Shown: piece after piece, positions 17,309 through 59,765 of the stretch
Position numbering within the stretch: the stretch's first letter is position 1
Layout of the letters: each line of letters opens with the position of its first letter
Source of the DNA: an uncultured Gammaproteobacteria bacterium
GTDB taxonomy: Bacteria > Patescibacteriota > Microgenomatia > UBA10105 > UBA927
Reading direction: 5' to 3'
Assembly: GCA_964394685.1 (NCBI GenBank)
Contig: CAYMYO010000001.1
Location: 64,040 to 128,039 of the forward strand
DNA: 64,000 nt
Notes under the pieces: model-generated
Seen by the model: only the letters and a program-made list of their open reading frames with translations
Told to the model about the DNA's origin: nothing
Databases searched by the model: none
Made by a program: the position numbers and the translations under genes

Positions 17309-17324
<16 letters not shown>

Positions 17325-38967: not shown

Positions 38968-38973
38968 CCAGTG

Positions 38974-39948: not shown

Positions 39949-39972
39949 GGTATCTATACTATATTTTACACA

Positions 39973-45106: not shown

Positions 45107-46165
45107 ATGGCTTTAGTCAGCATTATTATCGCAACGTTCAATTCCGCCCGTACTCTTCCTAAAGTGCTAGAGGCAATTAACAAGCAAACATACCCGAAAA
45201 AAAATATCGAAATATTAATTATTGATGGAGGATCTACAGATAGCACTGTATCTATTGCAAAACGATATGATTGTAAAATAATTATGAATCCCAAAGTCGA
45301 GCCTAATTATGCTAAATATTTAGGACTTCAAAATGCAAAAGGGCTATATGTTCTTTATATTGATCATGATGAAGTTTTTACAAATATCGATAGTATCAAA
45401 ACAAGAGTTGATATTTTTAAAAAGCATCACAACGTTAAAGCAATAACAGGAAATGGATATAGTAATCCGCCCGGACTCCACATCATTAATCGTTATATTA
45501 ACGAATTTGGAGATCCTTTTTCTTTCTTTATCTATCGATTATCAAAGAATTCAAATTTTTTCCTACCAACTATGTACAAACGGTTTAAAGTAACATTTGA
45601 TACAGAATTATATTCTATTTTTGATCTTTCCACTTCTTCCGAAATAGCACTTATAGAATTGGGTGCCGGAGGAGGGATGATTGATAGATCATATGTAAAA
45701 AAGAGTTTTGACAACACTGTTACTCAATATCAATTAGTTCCTCATTTGTTACATCTTTTATGTCCTAAATATCCGTTTCTTGGGATTGTTAAAAACGATT
45801 CGTTATATCATTATTCATCTGACAATTTTGGAGGTTACATGCAAAAGATTATTTGGCGAATAAAAAATAATATTTTTCATACCGATACCCTAGGTGCATC
45901 TGGATTTACCGGAAGAGAAGAATTCCAGACGCCAATTTCTCGTTTAAAAAAACTTTTATTTCTTCCCTATGCATTTTCTATTTTATTTCCTTGTATAGAT
46001 GCTGCATATCTCATGGTTACTCGAAAGGATGCATCATATTGCATTCACGTTCCATTGACTGTCATAACCGCAAGTATTATCGTATATTATTATTTTTTGA
46101 AAACATTGGGAATTAAGTCGACAATGATGAGTTACGATGGATCTACAAAAGCATATGAAAAGTAA
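45107..46165 (+). CDS. Glycosyltransferase family 2
   Basis: The sequence VSIIIATFNSARTLPKVLEAINKQTYPKKNIEILIIDGGSTDSTVSIAKRY is GT2-like. It is a paralog of 31342-32328. Confidence 0.8.
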   Translation: MALVSIIIATFNSARTLPKVLEAINKQTYPKKNIEILIIDGGSTDSTVSIAKRYDCKIIMNPKVEPNYAKYLGLQNAKGLYVLYIDHDEVFTNIDSIKTRVDIFKKHHNVKAITGNGYSNPPGLHIINRYINEFGDPFSFFIYRLSKNSNFFLPTMYKRFKVTFDTELYSIFDLSTSSEIALIELGAGGGMIDRSYVKKSFDNTVTQYQLVPHLLHLLCPKYPFLGIVKNDSLYHYSSDNFGGYMQKIIWRIKNNIFHTDTLGASGFTGREEFQTPISRLKKLLFLPYAFSILFPCIDAAYLMVTRKDASYCIHVPLTVITASIIVYYYFLKTLGIKSTMMSYDGSTKAYEK

Positions 46166-48293
46166 TAAAACAATCAATTTTTCTATCTTGATTGCTTTAG
46201 GTATCGCATTAGTATTATTTGTTATACCATTTTTTTGGTTAAAGCCGGGATTTGTTGATATAGGAGGAGATAGCGGAAGGCTATACTTTATCGATCCGCT
46301 TTCATTGGTGCAAAACTTGTTTCAAAGAAGAAATTTTGATGGAGCGACAGCATATGCTATTCTTCCGTACTACATATTCTGCTATTTGATATTACGAGTA
46401 ACAGGCTTTTCAACTCTAACCATTGGAGTGGACAGAGGTATATTGCTATCTCTTGCTTTTGTATCAATATATTTGATAGTTAAACAATTATTGACAGTGA
46501 ACGAAAAAAATAAAATTCGCATTGTACTTGCTGCTATTACCAGCGGAATAGTTTATATAACATTGATAACAAAATTGGGATGGTTAGCTCAACTAGACAC
46601 ACATAATCAGATATTTCTCAATCCGTTGATTTTTTATCTATTATTACGATTTTGTACAACATCAAACCCATTATATGGATTGGGTATCATTATAATTTCT
46701 TTTATATATTCAGTGAACTTTAGTTTTACCGGAATGCCACAGGTTGCATCGTTTTACCCGCTTGCTATACTTTTTCTATTTATTATTCTTCGAATTATCT
46801 ATAAAGTAGCCATACCGTGGAAGAAATTATTTATTTTACTAATAGTACTTATTGGTGTCCATTCGTATCATCTTATACCTATTGCCGCGTCCATTTTTGA
46901 TAAAAGTAGTGTTACACATTCATATATATTTAATGAAGAAACGATTCTAGCTTCCGGTGTAAAATATTTTGAAGCAAACCATAAAGATCTTGGAAAAATA
47001 AGTTTAGAACTATTTCAACCATCAGAATGGTCTAGGAAAACTATATTTATTTTAATAATTCCAATAATTGTTCTACTCGGGTTTTTGAGAAAGCCTTCAC
47101 GATTGTTAGCTATTTTAAGCGTTTTTTTTGCAATTACCTTTTATTTAGTATCCGCAAATATCACTCACATTGGAATTTATATATATAAACACCTTTTTTA
47201 TATTCCCGGGTTTATGATGTTTCGATCGTTTCAGGAGAAATGGTATTACGTCTATTCCTTCTTTTTTGCATTATTATTTGCATGTTCCTTCTATTTATTA
47301 ATAAAACCCTTGAAGCGATTCGTTGCCATCGGTATTACTATTTTTGTTATTTGTCTATCGTTGTATCGGATATATCCATTTCTGCGGGGAGATGCTATTA
47401 AAGCTCCTTTATATCAATCAAATAATGTAACTTCAGTACTAAAGTTAGATCCGGACTTAATTTCAACACTTTCATTTATTAAAACCTTACCTCAAGATGG
47501 CAAAGTAACTATATTTCCTTTGACGTTTCCGTATTTTCAGTTGTTTTATGGTAAAGAGGGTGGTGCATATATGGGAATACCAACAGTATTTCCTATAACC
47601 GGCAGAACTGATTATGCTGGTTTTTGGACGTTTGGTCCATATAAAAAGCAAATCACCGATGCATTTATTAATAGAGATATTGATCGTTTGATTCAATATT
47701 TTTCGCGACTTAACATCCGATATATTTTTTATAACTCAGATGACCGTATTTATACAAACTTTCCGTCTTTTCCCTATGAATATCCCAAAGAAGGGATTCC
47801 ATCAATTAAAGACAAAGCATCGTACGATGCTCTTCTTGAATCCCTTCCTATTCATAAAATTTACGAAAAAGGATTTTATTCCCTGTATGAAATCGATAAA
47901 GACCTCATTCAACCGCTCATATATATCGAGGGTGATGAAACCGGATCATTAACATACAAAAAAATATCACCCGTTATTTATGATATATGGGTTCAAATGA
48001 ATGAGCGAAAAACGCCATTTGTTATTGTATTTTCTGAGCCGTATCAGAAAAGTTGGACAATAGATTTCCAAAACAACAAGGAGATAATAAAAGAGCATAT
48101 CATGATAAATAATTACGCTAACGGATGGGTTATCGATCCCACAAAAGCAAAAAGTTCTGTAATCCAAGGACGTATATATTTAAAGTTTCAAAACTATTTT
48201 TATATTGGAAGTTTGATTTCAGGGGTAGCGTTTATTGTTATTGCTGTTCTTTTTATTTTATATCTAATTAAAAAACGATATGCAAAGACCTAA
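46137..48293 (+). CDS. Giant polytopic membrane protein (GGD-SRLY family), putative GT-C glycosyltransferase
   Basis: The 718-aa protein has N-terminal GFVDIGGDSGRLYFIDPLSL and many TM helices, followed by a C-terminal extracytoplasmic domain and a terminal TM anchor. Paralogs lie at 50210 and 53459. Confidence 0.5.
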   Translation: MDLQKHMKSNKTINFSILIALGIALVLFVIPFFWLKPGFVDIGGDSGRLYFIDPLSLVQNLFQRRNFDGATAYAILPYYIFCYLILRVTGFSTLTIGVDRGILLSLAFVSIYLIVKQLLTVNEKNKIRIVLAAITSGIVYITLITKLGWLAQLDTHNQIFLNPLIFYLLLRFCTTSNPLYGLGIIIISFIYSVNFSFTGMPQVASFYPLAILFLFIILRIIYKVAIPWKKLFILLIVLIGVHSYHLIPIAASIFDKSSVTHSYIFNEETILASGVKYFEANHKDLGKISLELFQPSEWSRKTIFILIIPIIVLLGFLRKPSRLLAILSVFFAITFYLVSANITHIGIYIYKHLFYIPGFMMFRSFQEKWYYVYSFFFALLFACSFYLLIKPLKRFVAIGITIFVICLSLYRIYPFLRGDAIKAPLYQSNNVTSVLKLDPDLISTLSFIKTLPQDGKVTIFPLTFPYFQLFYGKEGGAYMGIPTVFPITGRTDYAGFWTFGPYKKQITDAFINRDIDRLIQYFSRLNIRYIFYNSDDRIYTNFPSFPYEYPKEGIPSIKDKASYDALLESLPIHKIYEKGFYSLYEIDKDLIQPLIYIEGDETGSLTYKKISPVIYDIWVQMNERKTPFVIVFSEPYQKSWTIDFQNNKEIIKEHIMINNYANGWVIDPTKAKSSVIQGRIYLKFQNYFYIGSLISGVAFIVIAVLFILYLIKKRYAKT

Positions 48294-49287
48294 ATTATTA
48301 ATAATCGGTTCCTTGTGTCTGATTTTTATCATGGCAGGAATTGTGCTGCTTGATCTTGCGGGTACATTTTCTTATTCTGATATCTCCTTTGGTTTAGCAT
48401 TTTTGATATTTTTTGTATTTATGATTATACAAAAAGGAACGAGTAAGGTTTCTTTTGTTATAGCGTTATATTTTCTTATAACCATGGGCTTATCATACAT
48501 ACAGACTGGAACGAGTGTAATAACTGAAAGGTTAGGAGAATGGTTTTATTTATTTTTTCTTGTTGGAATACTCGAGTACCTAAAAGAAGCATGGAGCATC
48601 AATGATTCTAAAAAACAAGATAGTCGTACTGATTGGAATTTTTATTATACAAATAGAATAGGAAGCAATAAGAAGATATCGTTACACACGCAACTTGATT
48701 TACATGCTAGGTGGTACAGTAATTGGCTTGCATATATACAAAAACACATTGATATTTATAGCAATTCACTTCATATGTTTGAAATAGGAAGCGGGATGGG
48801 AGGAGTGCTTACACAACTATCAACACGCGGAGTACCTATTACCGGAAGTGATATATCAAAGAAAGCAATTGAAACATATGTAGAAAAACATCCCCATGCG
48901 CCATATATATTCTATGACATTGAAAAAAAACAAATTCTCAAGAAACAATATGATAGAGTAGTATCCTTTGAGGTATTAGAACATGTTCACACTCCGTCTT
49001 TTGCAATTCGTAACATAAAAAAACTATTAAAAAAGGGAGGATATTTTGTCGGCACGACACAATATCCGTATGAACATATATGTAGCATGCCAACTCATAT
49101 TCATGTTCATGAACCAGAATATTGGAAGAATGCATTTTTAAAACAAGGATTTGTTACCGTAGAAACATATCCCATGTCTCTTCCTCCATACCTTTGGAGA
49201 ATTCATCCAAAATTAAATATTGTACTGCCTTGCTATATTCCTTTTTGGGGTTGGATATCGACGACCCTTATTATTGCACGCGTATGA
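48280..49287 (+). CDS. Membrane-anchored class I SAM-dependent methyltransferase
   Basis: An N-terminal stretch of about 110 aa carries 3-4 TM helices. It is followed by the MTase fold MFEIGSGMGGVLTQLSTRGVPITGSDIS...VVSFEVLEHVHTP...LLKKGGYFV. Confidence 0.7.
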   Translation: MQRPKLLIIGSLCLIFIMAGIVLLDLAGTFSYSDISFGLAFLIFFVFMIIQKGTSKVSFVIALYFLITMGLSYIQTGTSVITERLGEWFYLFFLVGILEYLKEAWSINDSKKQDSRTDWNFYYTNRIGSNKKISLHTQLDLHARWYSNWLAYIQKHIDIYSNSLHMFEIGSGMGGVLTQLSTRGVPITGSDISKKAIETYVEKHPHAPYIFYDIEKKQILKKQYDRVVSFEVLEHVHTPSFAIRNIKKLLKKGGYFVGTTQYPYEHICSMPTHIHVHEPEYWKNAFLKQGFVTVETYPMSLPPYLWRIHPKLNIVLPCYIPFWGWISTTLIIARV

Positions 49288-50213
49288 AATGTCCGGTTTG
49301 TTTTAGTACTACATGGGAAAATCTTTTTCCATCAAAGGATAGGTTATACTATTTCCCAGGTTTATTTCATACTATTTGTTGCAACAGATGTGGTATATGG
49401 AGTCTTGACCCATTTTTAGACGAACGTGAAGTACGTAAATACTATCCAAAAACGTATTATTCGTACCAAAAAAATACAAAGCCCGGTATTTTTTGGCGCT
49501 TACGCTCCTATATGATAAAAACAAGTATTTCTATGAAACTCGTTCATCGCTGTTTGAGGTCAATTATTAAAATTCCGGCGATCCCTTCATATGTAGAATA
49601 CGGTAAAATTCTTGATATCGGATGTGGTTCAGGTGATACATTATTCCAACTAAAGAATATTGGCTGGGATGTATACGGATTAGATATCGATAAGTCTGCT
49701 ATACAAGTAGCTCGTAAACGGGGATTAAAAAAGGTAACGTTTGGATCATATAAAACAATGGGTTTGTATCAGGATAACTATTTTGATGTTATTCGACTGT
49801 ATCACGTGATAGAACATTTAGATAATCCGGACGCGTTACTTGTACTTGCGTATCAAAAACTCAAAAAGGGAGGAGAATTAATTATCGGCACTCCGAATGC
49901 AAAGAGCTTCGCAGCAAAGATTTTTAAACAATATTGGTATAATCTTGATTGCCCGAGACACCTGTATGTCTTTAATCCTAAACAACTGATATCGCTTCTT
50001 AAAAGAACAGGGTTTACAAATATAAAAATATCGTTTTTTTCTGCAGGAGGGATATTGGGGTCAATTCAGTATTTTTTACATGACACGTTACGAATCAATA
50101 TTGATTTAATAAATCGACCAATGCTGCTATTTCTACTCTATCCTCTTGAGAGGATTTTAGATATATTTGGAATGGGGGATGTATTTGTAATTAGTGCAAA
50201 AAAAAGCATATGA
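49284..50213 (+). CDS. SAM-dependent methyltransferase with N-terminal Cys4 zinc-ribbon
   Basis: The start MKCPVCF at 49284 overlaps the upstream TGA in ATGA fashion. The zinc-ribbon is CPVCF...CCNRCG. The MTase fold is ILDIGCGSGDTLFQL...GLDIDKSAI...LYHVIEHLDNP...LKKGGELIIGTPN. Confidence 0.7.
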   Translation: MKCPVCFSTTWENLFPSKDRLYYFPGLFHTICCNRCGIWSLDPFLDEREVRKYYPKTYYSYQKNTKPGIFWRLRSYMIKTSISMKLVHRCLRSIIKIPAIPSYVEYGKILDIGCGSGDTLFQLKNIGWDVYGLDIDKSAIQVARKRGLKKVTFGSYKTMGLYQDNYFDVIRLYHVIEHLDNPDALLVLAYQKLKKGGELIIGTPNAKSFAAKIFKQYWYNLDCPRHLYVFNPKQLISLLKRTGFTNIKISFFSAGGILGSIQYFLHDTLRINIDLINRPMLLFLLYPLERILDIFGMGDVFVISAKKSI

Positions 50214-52408
50214 AATGGAGACATGCATTACTGCTGTTTGTCCTGACAGCTTTATTTTTATTGCCTCAACTTTTCTGGGGGAAACTGTATATGGTTGGTG
50301 GAGATGACTCCAGGCTCTATTATTTATTCCCAAAACAATATCTGGAAAATTTCTCTTTAAAGGTTATTGCAAATAATACGCTTGGCGGAAATATGGGATA
50401 TTTCCCCGTCAGCTATTCAGCACCAATACTAGCGATAGCGACGGTATTTCAGTATATATTTCCATGGTTAAATATACAGTTTTTTATGTACGGAATAATT
50501 CTCATGTTTGGTTTTTTATTCATGCATCTTCTCTTGCAAGAGCTCATACCAAGTTTTTCAGTCATTGGGTATGTCTCTTCTATCATTGCAGCTTTATATT
50601 ACGTCTTTTCCCCCTTTATCCTTAAAACGTTTATGCAACATCAATTGATAGCTATCTTTATGCTCATGGTGTTGCCTGGATGCTTATATCTTTTTGTGAA
50701 AGGAATGAAAAAAAGAAGCTATAAATATATTCTCTTGTCCTCTTTGTTGTATTCAGTATTTAGCGCAACGTTATTAAGTGCACCTTGGTTTCTTGCAACG
50801 GTATTTATTCTTTTTCCATTACTGCTTTTTATCGTTTTTCAGTATAGAGATTTCTTCTGGAAAGCAAGTATTGTTCTTTTCATATCGTTTTTTTTTCTTA
50901 ATTTTTATTGGATCATTCATCAAGTAATCCCAATTGTATATCCAACAGGAGAGGTGAGTGTGACGTCAACGAATTCGACTCTTCAGGTAAAAGCGGCGAA
51001 TAACTACCTCATTGAAGCATTGACTCATTTGAATAGTCCTGTTTATCAAATGATAGGAACTGTAAGAACGTCGTGGTCTGATCGGGAAGGTCCGACGCTT
51101 GCTCAGTCAATAGGGGTTATTTATCTGTTTGTCATTCTACTGGCTGGAACCAGAATACATTTGGTAAGTAGAAGTCTTTATAAATATTATTGTGTCGGTT
51201 TGTCCGGATTATTATTCGCGATGCTATTTTTTACTCCGAATTTTGGGGAATGGAATTTACGTCTTTTTCAATTCTTAAATAATTATGTACCGTTGTTCGG
51301 AATGTTTCGCAATACGTACGATAAATTCGCTTTAGCAATGTCATTTCATTATTCGTTTGTTCTTTATGTCTCATTATGCGTATTAGAAAGAACGAAAACG
51401 AAAGTACTGTTTAAATATATCGGTCTTGTCATTATTGTTGGCGCCATGTTTTTTACTGCTTACCCGTACCTATTTCCAAAATTTAATGATAAAGAGTATT
51501 CGAATAGAATAACCGGTTCTTTGAATAAAGAGTTTTTTCAGCTAATTGGGTATTTAAAAAGTAATCCCACTTCCTCTCGTTATGTTTGGTTGCCTATGAC
51601 GTACCCTGGATATGTATTTATTAAAGAAGAAGGCGAAGGCAATCATTACTATGCAGGATTATCGCCCTTACAGGTTTTAGCGCAATCTAGCGATATTGCA
51701 GGTTATTATGGAATTCAAACGTCAACAAACCCAGATCTTAATTCTAAAGTTAGGATGCTGCTTCGAATAAAGGATTATGATGCTATCGGGCGAATATTTC
51801 AAAAACAGAATATAGGTTATGTTATCGTAAATAATGAAAAGCTGCCAAAAAAGGCATTAGAATTCTTAGATTCATATCCGTTTATGAGTGATCAGAACGA
51901 CGAATATAAAAATGTTATTTTAGGTGACAAGCTCCAAGATTTTGGTACTCGTTATGTTTTATATCGAATCAATCAAAAATATTATACAAACACGGTTTTT
52001 TTTACAAAAGACATCGGAGACTATCCAATAGCAGATGAAACTATTTCTTATACATACAAAAAAGTACGTTCTGGTTTATATAAAGTGACAATTGTGGGAA
52101 TAACAAAACCCTTAAAGTTAGTTTTAGCGGAGCCATATAACCGTCTTTGGAAACTACAGCTTGCTAATTCCAACAATTTGGTTAAGCTACCAATAGAAAA
52201 TGTTAAAGCTTATGATTTTGGTAACGGCTGGGAAATCGATCCTTATACATTAAAGACCAAATATCCAGAATATGTTATCGGGGAAGCTGATGGTTCAATT
52301 AGCTTAAAACTACACATACAATTTTTACCGGATTTGGTTACAAAACCAGCGCTTATTATAAGCCTTGGTTGTCTTATTTTTATATTAGTTTTATTATTTT
52401 TACCATGA
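50210..52408 (+). CDS. Giant polytopic membrane protein (paralog of 46137-48293)
   Basis: The 732-aa protein has N-terminal LYMVGGDDSRLYYLFPKQYL and the same TM, extracytoplasmic domain and terminal TM architecture as its paralogs. Confidence 0.5.
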   Translation: MKWRHALLLFVLTALFLLPQLFWGKLYMVGGDDSRLYYLFPKQYLENFSLKVIANNTLGGNMGYFPVSYSAPILAIATVFQYIFPWLNIQFFMYGIILMFGFLFMHLLLQELIPSFSVIGYVSSIIAALYYVFSPFILKTFMQHQLIAIFMLMVLPGCLYLFVKGMKKRSYKYILLSSLLYSVFSATLLSAPWFLATVFILFPLLLFIVFQYRDFFWKASIVLFISFFFLNFYWIIHQVIPIVYPTGEVSVTSTNSTLQVKAANNYLIEALTHLNSPVYQMIGTVRTSWSDREGPTLAQSIGVIYLFVILLAGTRIHLVSRSLYKYYCVGLSGLLFAMLFFTPNFGEWNLRLFQFLNNYVPLFGMFRNTYDKFALAMSFHYSFVLYVSLCVLERTKTKVLFKYIGLVIIVGAMFFTAYPYLFPKFNDKEYSNRITGSLNKEFFQLIGYLKSNPTSSRYVWLPMTYPGYVFIKEEGEGNHYYAGLSPLQVLAQSSDIAGYYGIQTSTNPDLNSKVRMLLRIKDYDAIGRIFQKQNIGYVIVNNEKLPKKALEFLDSYPFMSDQNDEYKNVILGDKLQDFGTRYVLYRINQKYYTNTVFFTKDIGDYPIADETISYTYKKVRSGLYKVTIVGITKPLKLVLAEPYNRLWKLQLANSNNLVKLPIENVKAYDFGNGWEIDPYTLKTKYPEYVIGEADGSISLKLHIQFLPDLVTKPALIISLGCLIFILVLLFLP

Positions 52409-53454
52409 TGAAATCTTTGAAGAAAATAGTGACAATAATGGTACTATTTATTTCCAGTATATTGCTTTCTCTGTTTTGGTATCGAGACGTTTATATTACG
52501 GCTATTCAAGAATTACATAAAGAAACACTTACGACTGAATTTACAGAAAAGCCACTTCTAAAAGAAGATACACTTCACTTTGAAATTACGGCAAAACATG
52601 ATAACTTTGGCATTCTAAAATTACGACCAAAAACATTTAATCGATTTAATTACGACATAATTCATTTTCGATTACGTGAAAAGGAAACCGAAACCTGGAG
52701 CGTTAACAACGCATACGTTGTTGACGTATTTAAAGATAAATTATTCTATCCCTTGGGTTTTCCGGTCATTCCAAATTCGAAGGGAAAAACATATGAAATC
52801 GAGATAACTTCTGAAAAAGGGAGCATTATAGATTCAATCGGTTTTTATGGTGGGCATAATTCGATAGCTACGCAATATGTTTATTTAAGGGAAAATATTA
52901 TTTTTAATAACTCATTGCTAACTTCATTTGTAATAGCAAAGAGTATTAGTTTAATGAAAGACCCATATTTTGTTTTGTTCTATTTATTATTCCTGCTACC
53001 CATTTTGTATTTTTTTACAAAAAGCCCTAGAACGAGAAAGCATAGATATTTTATTATTGAAATATGTATTATTTTATATTTGTATTTTGTATATATTTTT
53101 CTTCCCGTGGATTTTGATTCAAACGTTATTATTTATGTTGTTTCTGTTACATTTCTAATTGCTATCAATTATTATTATCCAGTTTTAAAAAATTTATTTG
53201 TGGGACATAAGTTCTATCCAGTTTCAAAAAATTTATTTGTTGGACATAAGTTCTATCCAGTTTCAAAAAATTTATTTGTTGGACATAAGTTCTCTTCATC
53301 ATATGTTTATCTATTCGCAATCATATTATTATTATATCTTTTAATAAATATCGCCTTAAACAGAGTACTTGAATCAACTAGGCTAGCCTTAGCGGTATTC
53401 TATACAATTGTATTAGCCTTGGGTGTTTCCTATGTAGAATTTAAAAATAAATAA
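52405..53454 (+). CDS. Membrane protein with internal 13-aa x3 tandem repeat
   Basis: It has an N-terminal TM segment, a soluble domain, C-terminal TM helices, and the repeat PV(L/S)KNLFVGHKFY x3. The MMKSLKK start at 52405 overlaps the upstream TGA. Confidence 0.5.
   Translation: MMKSLKKIVTIMVLFISSILLSLFWYRDVYITAIQELHKETLTTEFTEKPLLKEDTLHFEITAKHDNFGILKLRPKTFNRFNYDIIHFRLREKETETWSVNNAYVVDVFKDKLFYPLGFPVIPNSKGKTYEIEITSEKGSIIDSIGFYGGHNSIATQYVYLRENIIFNNSLLTSFVIAKSISLMKDPYFVLFYLLFLLPILYFFTKSPRTRKHRYFIIEICIILYLYFVYIFLPVDFDSNVIIYVVSVTFLIAINYYYPVLKNLFVGHKFYPVSKNLFVGHKFYPVSKNLFVGHKFSSSYVYLFAIILLLYLLINIALNRVLESTRLALAVFYTIVLALGVSYVEFKNK
53179..53295 (+). repeat. 39-bp x3 near-perfect coding tandem repeat (CCAGTTTCAAAAAATTTATTTGTTGGACATAAGTTCTAT)
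   Basis: Direct reading shows that copies 2 and 3 differ at 1 nt and copy 1 at 3 nt. The unit is in frame at 13 aa. Confidence 0.85.
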
Positions 53455-53458
53455 GTAT

Positions 53459-55090
53459 ATGAATTGGTATTTATCATCAGGAGATTTAGATTTTTTTTGG
53501 AAAGAACAAATTCAGCATCTCTCGTGGATTCCGAACGTCTTTAGAACAGATGTCGGATTCGGATGGTCAGGTATTATGAGTTTGTGGCTCGATTATCCGT
53601 TCCGTCTCGTTTTGAAACTGCTGTCAGCAATAGGATTATCATGGTTCTTTATCGAAAAACTTTTGTGGATGGCGGTATTTATTATCGCTGCATATTCGTC
53701 TTATTGTTTAGCTAAATATATATTGAAATCACGTCTATCTTCTTGGCTAGCAAGTTTCATCTATATAGCAAATACGTATTTTTTACTTCTGTTTAGCGGG
53801 GGGCAACTCGGGGTCGCGCTTGCGTACGCATTTGCACCGTTTGTGTTATTTCGCTTTATCGAATCTCTCGATACAAAAAAGCCAACAATAAAAAAAGCGA
53901 TTACCAATGGATTATGGTTGACTCTTCTTATTATTTTTGATCTGCGCCTTGCGTATTTGGCGTTTGGAGTAATTTTCCTTTATCAAATAATTTCAAGAAG
54001 GTTTCATATACGCTCAACGAGCATTTCCGTACTTGTGGCGATGGCAGTTCATGCATTTTGGATATTGCCGACTATTATGACGCAGACCGGTCCTTCAGTT
54101 ATGGGAGAGGATTTTACAAATCCCGGTATGCTTCGGTTTTTAAGTTTTGCGGACTTTTCCCATACTATTTCACTTCTTCACCCCAATTGGCCGGAGAATC
54201 TTTTTGGAAAGGTATATTTTTTGCAGCCGGAATTTCTTCTTATTCCGCTCGTAGCATTTTGTTCTCTACTATTTATTACACAAGCAAAAAATAAAAAGCA
54301 CATACTATTTTTGGGACTATTAGTTCTTATCGGAGCGTTTTTTGCAAAAGGAACGCAGCCTCCGTTTGGAGGAATATTTACTTGGTGTTTTCAACATATT
54401 CCCGGGTTTATAATGTTCCGCGATCCAACAAAATTCTACATGTTGACTGCTATTGGATATTCTGTTCTTATTCCATTTACTCTTTCGAAGATAAATAAAT
54501 ATTTTGTATATGCGTTATTTGGGGTATTTTGGCTTATTTTACTTCGAGCAGTTGCTACTGGCGAGGTTAAAGGAAATTTTCAACCAATACAACTTCCGCA
54601 GGAATATGTTCAGTTAAAAGATCAATTAGTTCAAGATACAAAATCATCCCGAACGCTCTGGATACCGAACAAAGAAAATTTCGCATATTATTCCGATATT
54701 CATCCAGTGTTGCAAATGAATCAGTTGTTTAAAGATATGTCACTGTCAGAACTGGCGACTGTCGCAACAAGTTCTGCATTTCTTGAAACGCTAAATAACG
54801 CCGGAGTGAAATATGTGATTGTTCCGATGAATATCGAAGGAAAAATATTCATGCGGGATTACAAATATAATAACGATTTACGAATGTCAATTGTTAATGC
54901 ATTAAAAAGTACTCCATTAAAACAAAACGCTAATTATGTAGATATCGCTGTTTTTGAAAATCCGCAATTTCAGGATATGAAAATTACGGTTCCTGACATA
55001 GTCCAAACGCAACAGTATTATGCAAATGTTGGCGTACTTATCAGTGTTGTTGTTTTTATTGTGATAGTTATTTTTATTGTATGGTTTTGA
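53459..55090 (+). CDS. Large polytopic membrane protein (shorter paralog of 46137/50210 family)
   Basis: The 543-aa protein has the N-terminus MNWYLSSGDLDFFWKEQIQHLSW. Its TM topology and C-terminal soluble domain plus terminal TM anchor match the paralogs. Confidence 0.45.
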   Translation: MNWYLSSGDLDFFWKEQIQHLSWIPNVFRTDVGFGWSGIMSLWLDYPFRLVLKLLSAIGLSWFFIEKLLWMAVFIIAAYSSYCLAKYILKSRLSSWLASFIYIANTYFLLLFSGGQLGVALAYAFAPFVLFRFIESLDTKKPTIKKAITNGLWLTLLIIFDLRLAYLAFGVIFLYQIISRRFHIRSTSISVLVAMAVHAFWILPTIMTQTGPSVMGEDFTNPGMLRFLSFADFSHTISLLHPNWPENLFGKVYFLQPEFLLIPLVAFCSLLFITQAKNKKHILFLGLLVLIGAFFAKGTQPPFGGIFTWCFQHIPGFIMFRDPTKFYMLTAIGYSVLIPFTLSKINKYFVYALFGVFWLILLRAVATGEVKGNFQPIQLPQEYVQLKDQLVQDTKSSRTLWIPNKENFAYYSDIHPVLQMNQLFKDMSLSELATVATSSAFLETLNNAGVKYVIVPMNIEGKIFMRDYKYNNDLRMSIVNALKSTPLKQNANYVDIAVFENPQFQDMKITVPDIVQTQQYYANVGVLISVVVFIVIVIFIVWF

Positions 55091-56937
55091 TACTTATTAT
55101 TTTTATTCTTCTTTCGTGGTACGCCGGGTACATTGTATTAGAACGAATTGTTCCAAAATTTCCAAAACTTTTTCTGTTGGCAGGCGCTTTCCTTGTCGGA
55201 ACCGCAATTATTGTGCCCATCACGTATATCTTCTCTTGTGCATTGGCAACAACTCATCAACCATTGTTGTGGGGGACTATAGCAACAACTGCGCTTCTTG
55301 CCATTGTGAGCATTCGGTATAGACGACGCATCAAGTTATCGTTTTCGTTTTCTGAGGTAGCTTTCTTGCTCTTTGCATTTGGTTTCAGTTATTGGCTCAT
55401 GTTTAAGACATTTCATGGCAGCACATCGGGACTGCTATTTGTCGGAAGCAATAACATTTTTGATTTTGGGTTGTCGATTGGACTTATCCGATCCATTTCA
55501 CACGGAGCAAATATACCCTTCGGTTCTCCATTTTTTGCCGGGTTTCCAATGTTTTACCATTTTTTCTTTCCGTTTTACTGTGCATTGTGGGAATATTTTG
55601 GCGTTCCGATTATATGGGCAGTGAATGGCCCAAGCATCCTTTCTTTTGCAGCACTTCTTATTGTTATTTTCTCTCTCCCTTCGATATTTGGAGTAAAAGG
55701 GAAACTTGTTGGTTGGATTGGAGTACTTTTGACAATAACACACCCGACCTTAACGTTTTGGAAATACATTGCAGACAAGGGGATATCGATAGAGACGCTT
55801 AAATATTTGTGGCAAATTCCTACGTATCCGTTTGCAGGTCCATTTGACGGTTCAATCATAAGTATCTTTATGACCCTCAATAACTACATAAACCAACGAC
55901 ATTTGGCATTTGCTGTTGTACTTGGATTAGTACTTTATGCCGTTGTTTGGAAAATAATCGCACAAACAAAAAAGACACGATGGTATATGTCTGTCATCAT
56001 CGGATGTTTCGTCGGCGGAATGTTTTACTGGAATGTAGTGATATGTGGTGCTATCATACTCTCTATTATTTTTTTATTTGCTGTATATAAACAACTTAAG
56101 GCAGGAATTGTATTTGCATGTTCTGTTGGTATAGTTGTTATTCTTTCACTTATTCTGTATATACCAACATTGATTGAATTATTCCGCTTTGCACAATATA
56201 TGACTTCTGATTCTTTCGCATCTTCTCAACGCACATGGTCGCTCTGGACATATCTTTGGGAAAATCTTGGAGTATTGCCGTTTGTGGCTGCCATTGGGTA
56301 CGTGGTTCTCGGAAAAAGGGTAAAGCCATTTCTTCCAATGGTCGTGATGTTTATTCTTTTAAGTTTATTCGCTGGGTATCACAACCGGGGATTTGATCAG
56401 AAGTTATTGTCTATTTTTATTATTCCCATAAATCTTCTTGCAGCCACAGGGTTAATATGGTTATGGAATAAAAAATTACTGATTGTAAGGGTTCTGTCAT
56501 GTTTTCTTTTTTTTGCACTCACAATTTCTGGAGTAATTGATTTATTGGTTGTGAAAAATGAATTCGCATTTCCGATAATTGGCAGTGAGTCATTGCCGGT
56601 TATTTCCTGGATACGCCGGAATACTCCCAAGGATGCTGTTTTTGTATCGTATAAAGACATGATCGATCCGGTCGTCCTTGCCGGGAGGAAAAATTATTAC
56701 GGTTTTTACGGCAATATCGGAGAATTTACACGATCATCTGAAACAGTTTCGAAAATATATGCGGGTGATATAAAAACTGCAAATAAATTGGGTATCTCCT
56801 ATATACTTATGCCTAAATGGAATAAAAGTGATTTTACATATGTTGTTGATGAGATAAAATTACGACAACTCTACCCAGTTGCCTATCAAGATGAACGGTT
56901 CCTTATCTTCGGCACGCGTTTGTCTGTGATACAATAA
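55081..56937 (+). CDS. Polytopic membrane protein, putative glycosyltransferase/polymerase-like
   Basis: The 618-aa protein has more than 12 TM helices and a C-terminal soluble domain. No confident family was assigned. It overlaps the upstream gene by 10 bp. Confidence 0.4.
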   Translation: MVLILIIFILLSWYAGYIVLERIVPKFPKLFLLAGAFLVGTAIIVPITYIFSCALATTHQPLLWGTIATTALLAIVSIRYRRRIKLSFSFSEVAFLLFAFGFSYWLMFKTFHGSTSGLLFVGSNNIFDFGLSIGLIRSISHGANIPFGSPFFAGFPMFYHFFFPFYCALWEYFGVPIIWAVNGPSILSFAALLIVIFSLPSIFGVKGKLVGWIGVLLTITHPTLTFWKYIADKGISIETLKYLWQIPTYPFAGPFDGSIISIFMTLNNYINQRHLAFAVVLGLVLYAVVWKIIAQTKKTRWYMSVIIGCFVGGMFYWNVVICGAIILSIIFLFAVYKQLKAGIVFACSVGIVVILSLILYIPTLIELFRFAQYMTSDSFASSQRTWSLWTYLWENLGVLPFVAAIGYVVLGKRVKPFLPMVVMFILLSLFAGYHNRGFDQKLLSIFIIPINLLAATGLIWLWNKKLLIVRVLSCFLFFALTISGVIDLLVVKNEFAFPIIGSESLPVISWIRRNTPKDAVFVSYKDMIDPVVLAGRKNYYGFYGNIGEFTRSSETVSKIYAGDIKTANKLGISYILMPKWNKSDFTYVVDEIKLRQLYPVAYQDERFLIFGTRLSVIQ

Positions 56938-56942: not shown

Positions 56943-57890
56943 ATGGATACATCCAAACTCGTGAGTGTTGTTACGGGTGGTGCTGGGTTTATTGGTTCTA
57001 ACCTCTGTGAAGCGCTCCTTGGAAAAGGCCATAAAGTTTATTGTATAGACAACCTTCTTACAGGAACTGAAAAGAATATAGATCCTTTAAAAACCAATCC
57101 TGATTTTACCTTCATTAAATGGGATGTAACAAATGATATGCCAGTACTTCCTAATGTTGACTATGTGTTTCATCTCGCATCTCCAGCTTCCGTTCCTGAC
57201 TATCAAAAATATGATGAAGAAACAGCACTGGTTAATTCAATTGGGACCAGAAATTTACTGAAATTTGCAAAAGCATATAACGCAAAGTTTTTATTTACTT
57301 CAACAAGTGAAGTATACGGAGACCCGAAAGAACATCCGCAAAAAGAAACATACTGGGGCAATGTGAATCCGAATGGAGTACGTGCGTGTTACGACGAATC
57401 CAAACGTTTTGGTGAAATGATAACAATGTTATATATCCGAAATAAAGGTGTTGACGGTCGGATTGCGAGAATTTTTAACACCTATGGACCAAAGATGAGA
57501 AAAGATGACGGGAGAGTCATATCAAATTTTATTAATCAGGCATTAGAGGGTAAACCAATCACCATATATGGTGAGGGGAAACAGACACGATCGTTTTGTT
57601 ATATTTTTGATCAAGTGGCAGGACTTATGGCGATGATGTTTGGGGATAATACAAAAGGAGAAGTAGTAAATATCGGTAATCCTGAAGAATATACCGTGTT
57701 AGATTTGGCAAACAAAATTAAAGCAATGACCGGATCAAAATCAGAAATCGTGTATGCAGAGCTTCCAAAGGATGATCCAACACAAAGAAAACCAGATATT
57801 TCAAAAGCGCAAACACTTCTTGGCTGGAAACCAATTGTGTCAGTTGACGAAGGTTTGAAAAAAACGATCGAATATTACAAATCGTTGTAA
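56943..57890 (+). CDS. UDP-glucuronate decarboxylase (UDP-xylose synthase, UXS-like SDR)
   Basis: The sequences VTGGAGFIGSNL and FTSTSEVYGDPKEHPQKETYWGNVNPNGVRACYDESKRFGEMI are nearly identical to the UXS signature block. Confidence 0.85.
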   Translation: MDTSKLVSVVTGGAGFIGSNLCEALLGKGHKVYCIDNLLTGTEKNIDPLKTNPDFTFIKWDVTNDMPVLPNVDYVFHLASPASVPDYQKYDEETALVNSIGTRNLLKFAKAYNAKFLFTSTSEVYGDPKEHPQKETYWGNVNPNGVRACYDESKRFGEMITMLYIRNKGVDGRIARIFNTYGPKMRKDDGRVISNFINQALEGKPITIYGEGKQTRSFCYIFDQVAGLMAMMFGDNTKGEVVNIGNPEEYTVLDLANKIKAMTGSKSEIVYAELPKDDPTQRKPDISKAQTLLGWKPIVSVDEGLKKTIEYYKSL

Positions 57891-57900: not shown

Positions 57901-58245
57901 ATGATTCGTATTATTACATCCTCAATATCACTGAAAGAATTGAAAGAATCGGCTAAAAATGGTTTAGGAACACTCGTTAAAGCGGTAGTAGATATCGAAC
58001 GAAAACTCATGGCAATAGAAGGAGCCATGCATGCTGATGAAGAACAAATACTTCTTACTGATGGATCGAAACAACAGAATCTTTGGGGTATAAATATTTA
58101 TCCTGATCTTCCGATTGCTGATCGTATTGAATTTGATTCAATGATAAATATTCGTCCTTCACAAGGGAATCCAAGCAGATCAGTAGAAAATCCTAACATT
58201 CAAAAGGAAATTCAAAGAATTGTAAACAGCATAATTACTGAATAA
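57901..58245 (+). CDS. Hypothetical protein (114 aa)
   Basis: Its presence as a complete ORF, its tight spacing with the next ORF, and its coding-like composition support the call. No family was recognised. Confidence 0.4.
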   Translation: MIRIITSSISLKELKESAKNGLGTLVKAVVDIERKLMAIEGAMHADEEQILLTDGSKQQNLWGINIYPDLPIADRIEFDSMINIRPSQGNPSRSVENPNIQKEIQRIVNSIITE

Positions 58246-58247: not shown

Positions 58248-58571
58248 ATGTATCATCCGTCACTTACACAAGAGAAATGGAATTCCCTCTCAACCTTTGA
58301 ACAGCTTGGAAATATTGGAAGTGAAGTGTCACGCGCCATCATTTGGCGTTCAAAAAATGCTGAGTATATGAAACTTGCAGTTTTTCGGGCTTTAGAATTA
58401 TTGGATTTGTCTGTTGGTGACAAGAAAAATATTCTTAATTTAAAAGAAATTCTTCGTGTCAGGGAGTGCATCGCTGATTATTTTTTAGGAGATAACGTAT
58501 ATAAGTTTACCGATGAGTGGTGGAATAAGTACTTTATGGAGTATGCAATGGCCGCAAGGAGACATACGTGA
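58248..58571 (+). CDS. Hypothetical protein (107 aa)
   Basis: It starts 3 nt after the previous stop. It is soluble and Trp/Tyr-rich. Confidence 0.4.
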   Translation: MYHPSLTQEKWNSLSTFEQLGNIGSEVSRAIIWRSKNAEYMKLAVFRALELLDLSVGDKKNILNLKEILRVRECIADYFLGDNVYKFTDEWWNKYFMEYAMAARRHT

Positions 58572-58784: not shown

Positions 58785-59765
58785 ATGAAATTCTTAATTA
58801 CCGGTGGTGTTGGATATATCGGGTCACTAACAAATGCATTCATTCAATCTCAAGGACACGAGACAGTTGTTTTTGACAGCCTAGTCAATGGTCATCGGGA
58901 ATCTGTTGGAAAAACACCGCTTATTGTTGGAGATTTATGTAATAAAGATGAAATAGATGCAGTGTTTCAGGATGAACGATTTGATGCGGTGATCCACTTT
59001 GCTGCGTTTGCTCTTGCCGGCGAATCCATGGAACGGCCATATGACTATTTAAGAAATAATATCAATGGAACGTTAAATCTTCTGGATTCAATGCATAAAT
59101 ATGATTGCAAAACACTCATATTTTCCTCAACATGTGCAATTTATGGATTCCCAAAATCACTTCCTGTGACCGAAGAGTCACCTATCAGTCCAATGTCTAT
59201 TTATGCTCAGTCCAAACGGTCGTGTGAAGAAATAATAGATTGGTATGAGGAGTTATATGGTATTAAGAACGCAAAACTTCGGTATTTTAATGCTTGTGGA
59301 GACATGCCGGATGGATCTTTGGGTGAAGATCATGCACCGGAAACACACATTATTCCTGTTGCGCTTCAAGCAGCGATTACTGGAAAGCCGTTTTTTGTGT
59401 TTGGAAAAGACTACAAAACATCGGATGGAACATGTATTCGAGATTATATTCACGTACTTGATCTTGCTGATGCGCATTTAAAAGCAGTGTCTTCAATACT
59501 TAAAACTAAAGAATCATTGACAGTTAATTTAGGGGTAGGGAAAGGGTATTCAAATTTGGAAGTACTAAAAGCTGTTGAGAAGGTCACAGGAAAAACGCTT
59601 GATATTCAATATAAAGAGAGACGTGCTGGTGATCCGGATGCCATATATGCAGATAACGCGAAGGCAAAGACAATACTCGGATGGGAACCACAGTATACAA
59701 CCATTGAATCGATCATCGAAACCGCGTGGGCGTGGCACTCAAAGCACCCAAACGGGTATAAATAG
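58785..59765 (+). CDS. galE: UDP-glucose 4-epimerase
   Basis: The sequence KFLITGGVGYIGS is present, and the catalytic YAQSK (Y-x3-K) is in SIYAQSKRS. The C-terminal PDGSLGEDHAPETHIIPV and GTCIRDYIHVLDLADAH blocks are typical of GalE. Confidence 0.85.
   Translation: MKFLITGGVGYIGSLTNAFIQSQGHETVVFDSLVNGHRESVGKTPLIVGDLCNKDEIDAVFQDERFDAVIHFAAFALAGESMERPYDYLRNNINGTLNLLDSMHKYDCKTLIFSSTCAIYGFPKSLPVTEESPISPMSIYAQSKRSCEEIIDWYEELYGIKNAKLRYFNACGDMPDGSLGEDHAPETHIIPVALQAAITGKPFFVFGKDYKTSDGTCIRDYIHVLDLADAHLKAVSSILKTKESLTVNLGVGKGYSNLEVLKAVEKVTGKTLDIQYKERRAGDPDAIYADNAKAKTILGWEPQYTTIESIIETAWAWHSKHPNGYK

Follow-up and report, generated by a model that had tools for sequence, protein, structure and literature searches.

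The window, the whole 64-kb stretch of DNA that was analysed, consists mostly of glycan genes, and the host of this envelope-glycan locus is a Microgenomates-type (CPR/Patescibacteria) bacterium. CPR bacteria are episymbionts with tiny genomes; their surfaces mediate host attachment, and their envelope glycans are essentially uncharacterised. Coordinates are positions within the window, forward strand, and the central genes are designated A, MT1, MT2, B, X, C and D. The features are as follows:

42849-43964, + strand: WecB-like 2-epimerase (Pfam Epimerase_2, E 1e-43)
43961-45097, + strand: WecE-type dTDP-4-amino-4,6-dideoxyhexose aminotransferase (NCBIfam PRK11706, 573.5 bits, cut-off 375)
45107..46165, + strand: GT2 glycosyltransferase, 352 aa (Pfam Glycos_transf_2, E 1.9e-20)
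46137..48293, + strand: A, predicted GT-C-fold membrane glycosyltransferase paralogue, 718 aa (BLASTP to B, topology, synteny)
46263-46289, 47202-47243 and 48120-48140, + strand: motifs of A, namely GGD, PGFMMFR..K and NGW
48280..49287, + strand: MT1, 335 aa, 4-TM module and class I SAM methyltransferase (Pfam Methyltransf_23/11/12)
49284..50213, + strand: MT2, 309 aa from ATG, Cys4 zinc-ribbon and class I SAM methyltransferase (Pfam Methyltransf_23)
50210..52408, + strand: B, predicted GT-C-fold membrane glycosyltransferase, 732 aa (AlphaFold2 model, Foldseek)
50297-50323, 51287-51328 and 52223-52243, + strand: motifs of B, namely GGDD, VPLFGMFRNTYDKF and NGWEIDP
52405..53454, + strand: X, 349 aa, membrane-anchored CBM-like protein (AlphaFold2, synteny, fusions)
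53459..55090, + strand: C, predicted shorter GT-C paralogue, 543 aa (hhalign to the B/A family)
53477-53497 and 54398-54436, + strand: motifs of C, namely G-D and IPGFIMFRDPTKF
55081..56937, + strand: D, polytopic membrane protein, 618 aa (synteny)
56943..57890, + strand: UDP-glucuronate decarboxylase (UDP-xylose synthase, UXS; phmmer against human UXS1)
58785..59765, + strand: GalE-type UDP-hexose 4-epimerase (NCBIfam TIGR01179)

Genes A to D form a single tightly coupled operon segment within the locus. The five reading frames described in the earlier note (A, MT1, MT2, B and C) are present with the positions and sizes given there, and the proposed translational coupling of the methyltransferases to their neighbours is borne out, with a 14-nt overlap between A and MT1 and ATGA junctions at MT1/MT2 and MT2/B. 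The B/X junction is also ATGA, the start ATG of X overlapping the stop codon of B; X and C are separated by a gap of 4 nt, and C and D overlap by 10 nt. At the upstream end, the GT2 gene overlaps the start of A, for which an alternative start at 46154 would give a protein of 712 aa. Two genes within this interval, X and D, had previously been missed.

Conservation of the gene cluster

Linkage was counted in loci of species-representative genomes. Downstream of the B-type gene, 31 of 35 loci have a C-type gene at a distance of at most 7 kb, and 30 of 45 have an X-like gene at a distance of at most 1 kb. B, X and C are the conserved core of the cluster, and a relative with a B protein of 42% identity has the genes in the same order. 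Orthologues of A (41-86% identity) occupy the same position in L001, L006 and L008-L011; the GT2 gene is directly upstream of A and overlaps it in L006, L008, L009 and L011, and WecB-like and WecE-type genes are found upstream of A in L001, L008 and L009 as well. D orthologues (35-46% identity) directly follow C in L001, L005, L007, L010, L013 and L050.

The sugar-nucleotide genes are part of the same pattern. UXS (E 5e-101 and 341 bits against human UXS1, the next family scoring 155 bits) has copies of 66-74% identity in L001, L005-L007, L009-L011, L013 and L019; these start at most about 1.7 kb after C or D and, except in L007 and L010, follow it directly. In most related loci a second SDR gene follows UXS, and the GalE-type epimerase (384.5 bits against a TIGR01179 cut-off of 262.3) is paired with UXS in such loci.

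X consists of an N-terminal TM anchor, an outside beta-sandwich (CBM-like, residues ~33-160) and about five TM helices. In the AlphaFold2 model, the beta domain has a pLDDT of ~80-90 and the TM part is poorly predicted. The gene contains an in-frame tandem repeat of three 39-nt units (53176-53293). X-like domains are fused to the N-terminus of a GT-C protein in two relatives, P0208 (E 3e-6) and P0223 (E 2e-8), and some long members of the GT-C family carry CBM-like domains themselves. From its fold and linkage, we infer that X is a partner subunit of the GT-C enzymes. D has about 12-13 TM helices and a C-terminal soluble domain of 125 aa; it matches no Pfam or NCBIfam model, and its profile match to the C family is weak (probability 50%, E 1.7e-4).

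Fold, motifs and topology of A, B and C

The earlier proposal that A, B and C are paralogous holds well beyond chance. BLASTP aligns A with B over their full length (E 3e-19, 22% identity, ~715 columns). In pairwise comparison, B and C reach only E 6e-4, and A and C show no significant similarity; the B/A family profile, however, aligns with the C family profile over 483 columns (hhalign probability 99.1%, E 7.5e-19). The GGD-SRLY motif ascribed to all three proteins is present in A (GGDSGRLYF) and B (GGDDSRLYY), whereas C keeps only the G-D (SSGDLDFF), which hhalign places in register with the B/A motif. A second motif, [IV]P.F.MFR...K[FW], absent from the earlier description, is also common to the paralogues.

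Each of the three proteins combines many TM helices with a soluble domain on the outside and a TM helix at the end, as had been claimed, but the first TM helix is missing in C. According to hydropathy and the model of B, A and B consist of TM1, an outside loop bearing the motif, about 10-11 further TM helices, the soluble domain and the terminal TM helix. The soluble domain comprises ~270-280 aa in A and B and ~150 aa in C. C begins 6 residues before the G-D, without a canonical TM1, as do all 25 aligned homologues. Its catalytic loop must therefore get to the outer face by another, as yet putative, route. The acidic residue sought for GT-C membership, conserved in the first extracytoplasmic loop directly after TM1, occurs in A, B and C, although C has the loop without TM1. 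In B this residue is D32, corresponding to D45 of A; G30, G31 and D32 are invariant in 26 sequences including A, D33 is nearly invariant, and all 17 invariant columns of alignment A1 are present in A. G8 and D9 of C are invariant in 25 C-family sequences, with ~70 further invariant columns that include the PGF.MFRDPTK loop.

The AlphaFold2 model of B is confident (pLDDT 86.5, pTM 0.84), and A and C are linked to B by sequence and profile homology. The best Foldseek match of the model is mycobacterial AftD (6w98_A, E 3.9e-8), aligned over 578 residues including the soluble domain, and the matches that come next are all GT-C enzymes, namely Pmt4, STT3B, PglB, ALG9, AftA, ArnT and AftB. The probability is 1.00 for AftD, OST and PglB. 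The suggestion of AftD- or YfhO-type glycosyltransferases is thereby supported at the level of fold and superfamily. Modelling and homology indicate that A, B and C belong as divergent paralogues to a large GT-C family, with AftD as the closest solved relative. AftD is also the best PDB sequence match of the C-family profile, positions 26-214 of which align to AftD 58-244, albeit marginally (E 0.13). Ungapped back-extrapolation of this marginal alignment would place the conserved Asp of C on D41 of AftD, which belongs to a set of five residues with demonstrated essential roles (bioRxiv 10.1101/2019.12.22.885152).

A transporter or peptidase fold had been named beforehand as the outcome that would exclude a glycosyltransferase. 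The many TM helices allow such a function a priori, and MFS proteins do appear in the Foldseek list, but only at E 0.09-1.8, with probabilities of at most 0.14 and a TM-score of ~0.1, against a probability of 1.00 for the GT-C matches. We consider a transporter or peptidase extremely improbable.

A different question is whether A, B and C glycosylate proteins, such as S-layer proteins, pilins or other surface proteins, in the manner of Pmt or PglB/STT3, rather than a polysaccharide or lipoglycan. The Foldseek list has OST subunits directly behind AftD, and the window contains many PMT_2-type genes among at least 10 further YfhO, PMT_2 and PTPS_related genes, which we take to be GT-C families. 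However, the Pmt and OST alignments cover 335-414 residues, mainly of the TM core, whereas that of AftD extends into the soluble domain. The CBM-like, presumably glycan-binding, domains of X and of some long family members also speak against protein acceptors, as do the polysaccharide-type surroundings: the window holds a Wzx-like flippase, and related loci contain Wzy_C and Bac_transf genes. Many GT2 and GT4 genes are also present in the window. We consider protein glycosylation unlikely, and a glycan acceptor is preferred. Glycan polymerases is a putative label; A, B and C may be side-chain or decorating transferases.

None of the three proteins passes a Pfam or NCBIfam model, including the Pfam models for AftD, YfhO and PMT_2. 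PF11847 (AftD, DUF3367) gives no match to A, B or C at E <= 0.1, a precomputed match existing in a single C homologue, P0167. PF09586 (YfhO) likewise matches none of them; two other proteins of the window score 65-78 bits with it. By these sequence models, A, B and C are not members of the AftD or YfhO Pfam families. The family itself is very large. The B/A profile matches 7,443 clusters at 50% identity, of which those informatively named are nearly all from CPR/Patescibacteria, and C has more than 859 homologues.

The only curated model matched by C is NCBIfam MmpA, NF053599, which does not match A or B. The score of 54.5 bits (E 7.3e-15) lies below the curated whole-protein cut-off of 210, and the match is co-linear (C 264-418 to profile positions 260-415 of 543). 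C, and possibly A and B, could then be a scaffold or lipid-delivery factor rather than an enzyme, organising a complex with a methyltransferase. In Corynebacterineae, MmpA organises such a membrane complex, with MtrP and TmaT as partners. MmpA is similar to the N-terminal portion of AftD and acts together with a putative methyltransferase (PMC8698533). The lack of TM1 in C would fit this role. Conversely, the score is far under the cut-off, and the invariance of the acidic loop residue in both families, together with the ~70 additional C-family columns, is the pattern expected of an active site. MmpA itself may also be an enzyme, and CPR bacteria are not known to make trehalose mycolates or to have the MmpA pathway. 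A non-enzymatic scaffold appears very unlikely, and we retain the glycosyltransferase reading.

Methyltransferases and proposed mechanism

Both methyltransferases have the architecture previously ascribed to them. MT1 is membrane-anchored, with four N-terminal TM helices (residues 1 to ~105, motif ITERLGEWFY at 48520-48549) followed by a class I SAM domain (Methyltransf_23, E 2.5e-15, 57 bits, cut-off 27). Loop charges in the 4-TM module obey the positive-inside rule, and their distribution predicts a cytoplasmic methyltransferase domain. MT2 begins with a zinc ribbon (CPVC at 49290-49301, CNRC at 49380-49391), continues into a Methyltransf_23 domain (E 6.9e-26, 91 bits) and has no TM segment. 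The Rossmann-type domain, motif I and the acidic residue after strand 2 that define class I enzymes are found in both proteins. A missing motif I, which would have pointed to inactive enzymes, is not observed: it is intact in MT1 (EIGSGMGG, 48781-48804, with the acidic loop GSDIS at 48844-48858) and in MT2 (DIGCGSGDT, 49614-49640, with GLDID at 49677-49691). The four Cys and the SAM motifs of MT2 show no variation across 8 orthologues. The 4-TM module of MT1 is a stand-alone gene of 105 aa in L006, and only this part is present at the MT1 position in L009 and L010. It matches no family, although it has the size of GtrA-, SMR- or MATE-type flippases.

The substrate of these enzymes was suggested to be the glycan or its lipid carrier. 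Conserved gene linkage and membrane tethering are consistent with this suggestion. Only generic class I models match, with none specific to sugar methyltransferases; the nearest solved structures of MT2 are generic, uncharacterised or small-molecule methyltransferases, and the best curated matches (UbiG, BioC, cyclopropane-fatty-acid synthase and phosphoethanolamine N-methyltransferases) are weak and all below cut-off. It could thus be argued that MT1 and MT2 are mere neighbours that methylate a membrane lipid, a quinone or a protein, the anchor of MT1 reflecting a lipid substrate. However, the methyltransferase genes overlap the GT-C genes by 4-14 nt. In 17 of 47 loci a methyltransferase homologue has its end no more than 400 nt before the B-type gene, and a methyltransferase is found within 5 kb of it in 32 of 49 related loci (absent from 17, L005 being a locus without one). 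This linkage spans distant CPR lineages and is kept where the other neighbours differ (L002, L003, L022 and L030). We regard a coincidental neighbourhood as unlikely, and a role in the glycan pathway is preferred.

The GT2 protein has two hydrophobic C-terminal segments, with a C-terminal TM helix at about residues 312-331. Its best PDB sequence matches are TarS-type GT2 enzymes, so that in sequence it is like the ordinary soluble-type GT2 proteins and unlike GtrB or ArnC; its architecture and position suggest a candidate cytoplasmic synthase of a polyprenyl-phosphate-sugar donor. Topology and this upstream GT2 with TM segments point indirectly to a polyprenyl-phosphate- or diphosphate-linked donor, which A, B and C would use on the outer face. 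Among the neighbours of the cluster, none was recognised as a donor flippase of the GtrA, SMR or MATE type, and the window yielded no UbiA-type or DprE-type genes of the decaprenyl-phospho-arabinose pathway.

We propose that the operon combines GT-C paralogues, a CBM-like partner, methyltransferases and precursor supply for a surface glycan, a reading that we consider moderately probable as a whole. As in other GT-C enzymes, the G-G-D loop and the soluble domain of A, B and C would most likely face outwards from the cytoplasmic membrane, and there the proteins would transfer sugar from the lipid-linked donor, loaded by the GT2 enzyme, to the growing surface glycan. The acceptor glycan of the B-type enzyme, the C-type enzyme or both is probably held by X; as a separate protein, or fused to the N-terminus of the enzyme in some relatives, X would take the part of the built-in CBMs of AftD and EmbC. 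MT1, tethered by its 4-TM module, and MT2 would face the cytoplasm and most likely methylate the sugar on the inner face, at the stage of a nucleotide- or lipid-linked precursor; the residues installed by the GT-C enzymes would then be methylated. UXS and the GalE-type epimerase could supply a pentose, and the WecE-type aminotransferase an amino sugar.

A more elaborate model, which we put forward as speculative and distinctly improbable, is that B, X and C, joined by D in some lineages, form a heteromeric glycosylation machine found almost only in CPR bacteria. X would feed the acceptor to two GT-C sites, the TM1-less C would rely on its partners to position the catalytic N-terminal loop, and the tethered methyltransferases would methylate a polyprenyl-linked pentose (xylose or arabinose, via UXS/GalE) before flipping. 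The product would be a methylated pentose-containing surface polymer new for bacteria.

The analysis attaches a fold and a probable chemistry to a family of 7,443 clusters in which no Pfam or NCBIfam model is passed. It also defines a conserved module of a B-type GT-C protein, a CBM-like membrane partner, a TM1-less C-type GT-C protein and methyltransferases.

Comparison with known systems

AftD (PF11847/DUF3367; PDB 6w98, 6wbx) is a protein of ~1,400 aa that has 16 TM helices, carries three CBMs of its own and ends in a helical bundle to which an acyl carrier protein binds. A and B do not share this architecture: each has ~12 TM helices, only one soluble domain and one TM helix at the end, and no ACP-binding bundle was identified. 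The identity of A, B and C to AftD is only 11-15%, and the conserved Asp of the first outside loop falls in register with D41 by extrapolation from a marginal alignment. AftD uses its carbohydrate-binding modules for the acceptor, whereas here the CBM-like module is a separate protein, X.

MmpA (Rv0226c/NCgl2761; NF053599) is similar in size to C, but has an N-terminal TM or signal segment that C lacks. It begins with an AftD-like TM domain, has a single outside domain that precedes the last TM helix, is genetically linked to the putative methyltransferase MtrP and a co-transcribed upstream membrane protein, and functions in acetylation and transport of trehalose corynomycolate, with no glycosyltransferase activity known (PMC8698533). 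The tie to AftD and MmpA offers an outgroup for understanding these essential mycobacterial proteins.

YfhO-type GT-C proteins follow the same plan as A, B and C, in which a TM core is followed by an outside domain and a last TM helix, and have a C-terminal beta-domain motif in common with A and B (...EPY..W..., ...NGW...). Against a YfhO-family protein of the window, the B/A profile gives an hhalign probability of 5%, and only the segment with this motif is aligned. Genuine YfhO genes are present in the same window. The likeness to the three-component systems GtrA/GtrB/GtrC and CsbB/GtcA/YfhO lies in the GT2, which has C-terminal TM segments and is encoded immediately before A, the place expected of a GtrB or CsbB; here, however, the GT2 sequence is not GtrB-like and a GtrA/GtcA-type flippase was not recognised.

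Among membrane-associated glycan methyltransferases, the chain terminator WbdD, which is mentioned in PMC11127046, offers a possible analogy, as an inner-face SAM methyltransferase acting on a lipid-linked glycan and encoded in a glycan locus. MT1 and MT2 differ from it in having no kinase or coiled-coil domain, MT1 carrying an integral 4-TM anchor and MT2 a Cys4 ribbon. The operon extends the known theme of GT-C enzymes and lipid-linked donors and is not a new kind of system.

The seven-gene operon and its three large membrane proteins

Seven co-directional genes, overlapping or nearly abutting, occupy 46137-56937. Five of them had been described in the earlier note, which left X and D unmentioned.

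Genes of the operon
46137-48293: A, large membrane protein, 718 aa
48280-49287: MT1, SAM methyltransferase, 335 aa
49284-50213: MT2, SAM methyltransferase, 309 aa
50210-52408: B, large membrane protein, 732 aa
52405-53454: X, gene between B and C, 349 aa
53459-55090: C, large membrane protein, 543 aa
55081-56937: D, gene after C, 618 aa

A and MT1 overlap by 14 nt, the MT1/MT2, MT2/B and B/X junctions are each an ATGA, a 4-nt gap separates X from C, and C and D overlap by 10 nt. The GT2 gene preceding A overlaps it as well. For X, the ATG overlapping the stop codon (TGA) of B is the true start, and the TTG further upstream is not. Scanning for promoter and terminator consensus sequences inside the operon gave no enrichment relative to shuffled sequence. 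The G+C content of the region is about 32-38%.

The three giants were proposed to be paralogues with a common N-terminal GGD-SRLY motif, and the paralogy holds: A and B can be aligned over their full lengths (22% identity, E 3e-19). In pairwise comparison C shows weak similarity to B (E 6e-4) and no significant similarity to A. When the profile of the B/A family (homologues of B and A) is aligned by hhalign to that of the C family (homologues of C), the probability is 99.1% (E 7.5e-19, 483 columns). This alignment begins exactly at the N-terminal motif and pairs VGGDDSRLYY with SSGDLDFF; A and B thus have the whole motif, and C retains G-D alone. Another signature, P-x-F-x-MFR-x(3,4)-K-[FW], is common to the giants, and a C-terminal ...NGW.IDP motif to A and B. 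The proposed topology, with many TM segments, a large extracytoplasmic domain and a terminal TM anchor, agrees with hydropathy and with the AlphaFold2 model.

Fold, active site and the N-terminus of C

Neither Pfam nor NCBIfam recognises A or B, and PDB sequence searches with A, B, C and the B/A profile found nothing. The AlphaFold2 model of B, built from 26 family sequences, is confident (pLDDT 86.5, pTM 0.84). Foldseek places AftD first (E 3.9e-8), followed by OST and PglB. The alternative that the giants are transporters is rejected, as MFS transporters appear only at E > 0.08; with AftD, OST and PglB leading the matches, the transporter or peptidase fold that the earlier note named as excluding a glycosyltransferase was not encountered. 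The giants are very probably GT-C enzymes. The earlier observation is confirmed, and its AftD/YfhO-type glycosyltransferase interpretation is supported at the level of the fold. With a GT-C fold and no curated model, A, B and C therefore represent un-curated sequence families of a well-known fold.

The Asp of G-G-D (D45 in A, D9 in C) is invariant in both the B/A and C families. For the C-family profile, AftD is the best PDB sequence match (marginal, E 0.13), with profile positions 26-214 aligned to AftD 58-244. When the register is extended back without gaps, the invariant Asp would correspond to AftD D41, by extrapolation and not by structural superposition. Alanine mutants of AftD K39, D41, E251, K361 and D474 fail to complement (bioRxiv 10.1101/2019.12.22.885152). 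For K361 and the FR...K motif, a C-family sub-profile gave no PDB match, which leaves D41 alone placeable. A rival reading takes C for a non-catalytic, MmpA-like scaffold. C matches the NCBIfam MmpA model at 54.5 bits, below the cut-off of 210, and its family shares the invariant Asp with A and B. C is also faintly similar to one PTPS_related GT-C within the window (E 1e-4).

C has no first TM helix, and its ORF cannot be extended upstream. The start point lies 2-6 residues before G-D in all 25 homologues aligned with C (alignment A2; identity down to 44%); one gene call carries a short upstream extension. With its start this close to the G-D that is conserved in the first outside loop, the C family as a whole lacks the canonical first TM helix of GT-C enzymes; it numbers more than 859 word-indexed homologues, and one of these has a PF11847 (AftD) match. 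The N-terminal loop of C, about 56 aa long, would have to reach the outer face without this helix. The last TM helix of X, considered as a first helix supplied in trans, is not supported: both ends of X are cytoplasmic by hydropathy and a low-confidence TM model. That C occurs without an upstream X in loci L005 and L007 also counts against X supplying it. The 986- and 993-aa genes preceding C in these two loci were considered as B-X fusions and rejected, as BLASTP found no X part; they are larger paralogues from the same superfamily with GHDSGFRL, PGFAIFR and NGWIID motifs and a terminal TM segment.

Gene X, the methyltransferases and gene D

By hydropathy and modelling, X starts with a TM helix and continues with a beta-rich soluble domain of about 130 aa (residues about 30-165, pLDDT ~80-90) and about five further TM helices, for which the model is poor. 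Searches against Pfam at E up to 10 gave nothing meaningful. In 30/45 loci with enough sequence, the B-type gene has an X-like gene no more than 1 kb downstream of it, a minimum figure given the fast evolution of X; in 31/35 loci, a C-type gene is found no more than 7 kb downstream. Among the 150 best B/A-family representatives, 11 (~7%) carry an N-terminal extension of about 265-350 aa before the GT-C part (P0206, P0208, P0210, P0216, P0220, P0223, P0224, P0229, P0231, P0234 and P0236). These proteins, about 1,000-1,100 aa long, combine an X-like module (TM, CBM-like domain, TM bundle) with a complete B-type GT-C. The extension aligns with X from residue 1 (BLASTP E 3e-6 and 2e-8 in the two tested), and conserved columns are common to all. 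Because of this gene fusion and the conserved adjacency, X appears to be a dedicated partner of the GT-C enzymes. The obvious analogy is with AftD and EmbC, whose built-in CBMs bind the acceptor glycan; here the domain is separate or fused. A rival explanation holds that the acceptors are protein rather than glycan; OST and PglB stand behind AftD among the structural matches, and the analogy of X with acceptor-binding CBMs points to a glycan.

Extra CBM_4_9-like inserts are present in other family members, about 1,230 aa in length. In seven loci (L015, L017, L020, L021, L023, L025 and L035) the order is B-type, X, second B-type paralogue, C-type, with MT1-like methyltransferases often further downstream; lineages therefore differ in how many GT-C paralogues the operon contains. 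X itself contains a 39-nt in-frame tandem repeat (x3.0, 53176-53293, 97% matches), which yields three copies of NLFVGHKFYPVSK in a loop that is rich in Lys and His, joins TM helices and is predicted to be cytoplasmic. It is missing from the X orthologues of L001 and L006 and thus represents a recent local expansion.

Both MT1 and MT2 are class I SAM methyltransferases with motif I and the following acidic residue intact, so that the missing motif I by which they might be judged inactive was not encountered. For MT2, eight orthologues show no variation in the SAM motifs or in the four Cys of its N-terminal ribbon. The N-terminus of MT1 forms four TM helices, and because their loops obey the positive-inside rule the catalytic domain is predicted to be cytoplasmic, where it must lie to use SAM. 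The 4-TM module (48280-48600, motif ITER.GEWFY) has a counterpart in L006, where a gene of its own (105 aa, 3555-3872) occupies the same position, and in L009 and L010 it also occurs without the catalytic domain; MT1 is therefore, judging from these arrangements, a conserved small membrane protein fused to a methyltransferase. The module found nothing meaningful in Pfam at E up to 10, and no GtrA match; its size is that of GtrA- or SMR-type lipid-sugar flippases.

A rival, less probable reading takes the methyltransferases for unrelated neighbours of the giants. Their best matches, below cut-offs, are generic or small-molecule enzymes. In 17/47 loci the end of a methyltransferase gene is no more than 400 nt upstream of the B-type gene, and in 32/49 a methyltransferase lies within 5 kb of it, an association frequent across distant lineages and not universal.

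D is a polytopic membrane protein that directly follows C in six related loci (35-46% identity). It gave nothing meaningful against Pfam at E up to 10. D was considered as a possible GT-C: its family profile matches that of C with a probability of 50%, and other GT-C genes of the window not at all.

Glycan context, distribution and proposed mechanism

The whole window is a glycan locus. Besides a Wzx-like flippase and many genes of the GT2 and GT4 types, it encodes acetyltransferases, a carbamoyltransferase and three aminotransferases of the DegT type. Ten or more additional genes are of the YfhO, PMT_2 or PTPS_related kind, all regarded here as GT-C families.

Neighbouring genes in the window
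380-1909: large membrane protein without Pfam match
1906-3237: large membrane protein without Pfam match
3182-5530: YfhO-type
5487-7208, minus strand: PMT_2-type
7195-9606, minus strand: YfhO-type
9611-11287: PMT_2-type
11284-12924: PMT_2-type
12921-14408: large membrane protein without Pfam match
14410-15648: PMT_2-type
15678-17324: PTPS_related
19641-21218: PMT_2-type
21221-22813: PTPS_related
36306-38141, minus strand: NodU/CmcH-type carbamoyltransferase
38974-39948, minus strand: class I methyltransferase
39937-41154: thiolase
41151-41894: SDR (adh_short / adh_short_C2)
41891-42829: ornithine carbamoyltransferase
56943-57890: UDP-glucuronate decarboxylase (UDP-xylose synthase, UXS), directly downstream of D
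57901-58245: DUF5674 gene
58248-58571: 107-aa ORF
58785-59765: GalE, after the two small genes

For a small genome, at least ten large membrane proteins in the upstream third of the window (380-22813) are unusually many. The mixed group of genes at 36306-42829, which immediately precedes the sugar genes, raises the possibility of glycan carbamoylation. A is directly preceded by a WecB-like epimerase, a WecE-type aminotransferase scoring above the equivalog cut-off, and the GT2 with C-terminal TM segments. Assignment of this GT2 (45107) as a GtrB/ArnC-type synthase was rejected, since a PDB sequence search returned TarS and other ordinary GT2 enzymes; a donor-synthase role is suggested by its architecture.

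The UXS of the window matches human UXS1 at E 5e-101, and nine related loci have a copy 66-74% identical to it close behind C or D. This conservation points to UDP-xylose, and possibly to UDP-arabinose via a GalE-type epimerase, as a precursor. UXS and GalE are close neighbours in related loci (gaps of ~0.2-0.3 kb), whereas in the window two small inserted genes set them apart. The window showed no UbiA- or DprE-type genes for the decaprenyl-phospho-arabinose route of mycobacteria.

An exhaustive search with the B/A profile retrieved 7,443 clusters (50% identity) at E <= 1e-3, 4,889 at E <= 1e-10 and 875 at E <= 1e-30. Pfam scans of family members gave nothing, or sub-threshold DUF6044 or CBM_4_9. 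The nearest named homologues of B and C come from metagenome bins of the Microgenomates group and other Patescibacteria. Among 51 related loci from species-representative genomes, informative titles are mostly CPR lineages (Levy-, Gottesman-, Ames-, Woese-, Moranii-, Staskawicz-, Berkel- and Saccharibacteria); the others are Limnocylindrales (1), 'uncultured Gammaproteobacteria' (~28), 'uncultured Pseudomonadales' (1) and 'bacterium' (1). L028 and L045, whose records bear Saccharibacteria or Saccharimonadia titles, have B-type genes. The gammaproteobacterial and pseudomonad titles, given to third-party assemblies with a CPR-typical operon, look like placeholder or erroneous taxonomy, because many such records among L008-L058 share contigs and synteny with Patescibacteria bins. 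Our literature search found no paper linking CPR with GT-C enzymes. In our verdict, the GT-C family is un-curated and centred on CPR; its B-X-C core is conserved, and it comes with a CBM partner in trans or fused, a paralogue lacking the first TM helix, and coupled methyltransferases.

From the folds shown and the gene linkage, we infer the following as the most likely mechanism. Flanking enzymes would make nucleotide sugars. At the inner face, a sugar would be transferred to polyprenyl phosphate, a step for which the GT2 at 45107 is the candidate enzyme. The cytoplasmic methyltransferases may then modify the lipid-bound sugar or a lipid-linked intermediate. After flipping, outward-facing A, B and C would each attach a residue to a surface glycan, which the CBM-like X would hold. 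Taken as a whole, this scheme seems to us somewhat more likely than not.

A, B and C would work like AftD- or YfhO-type GT-C enzymes but stand outside those families, whose Pfam models they do not match. Unlike the giants, AftD has 16 TM helices, three CBMs and an ACP-binding bundle. MmpA (Rv0226c) resembles C in size and co-linearity, with a match far below threshold. In Corynebacterineae, the AftD-like MmpA depends on MtrP, a putative methyltransferase, and shares a transcript with a membrane protein encoded upstream (PMC8698533). This pairing of an AftD-like protein with a putative methyltransferase is a parallel to the giants and methyltransferases here that is worth recording.
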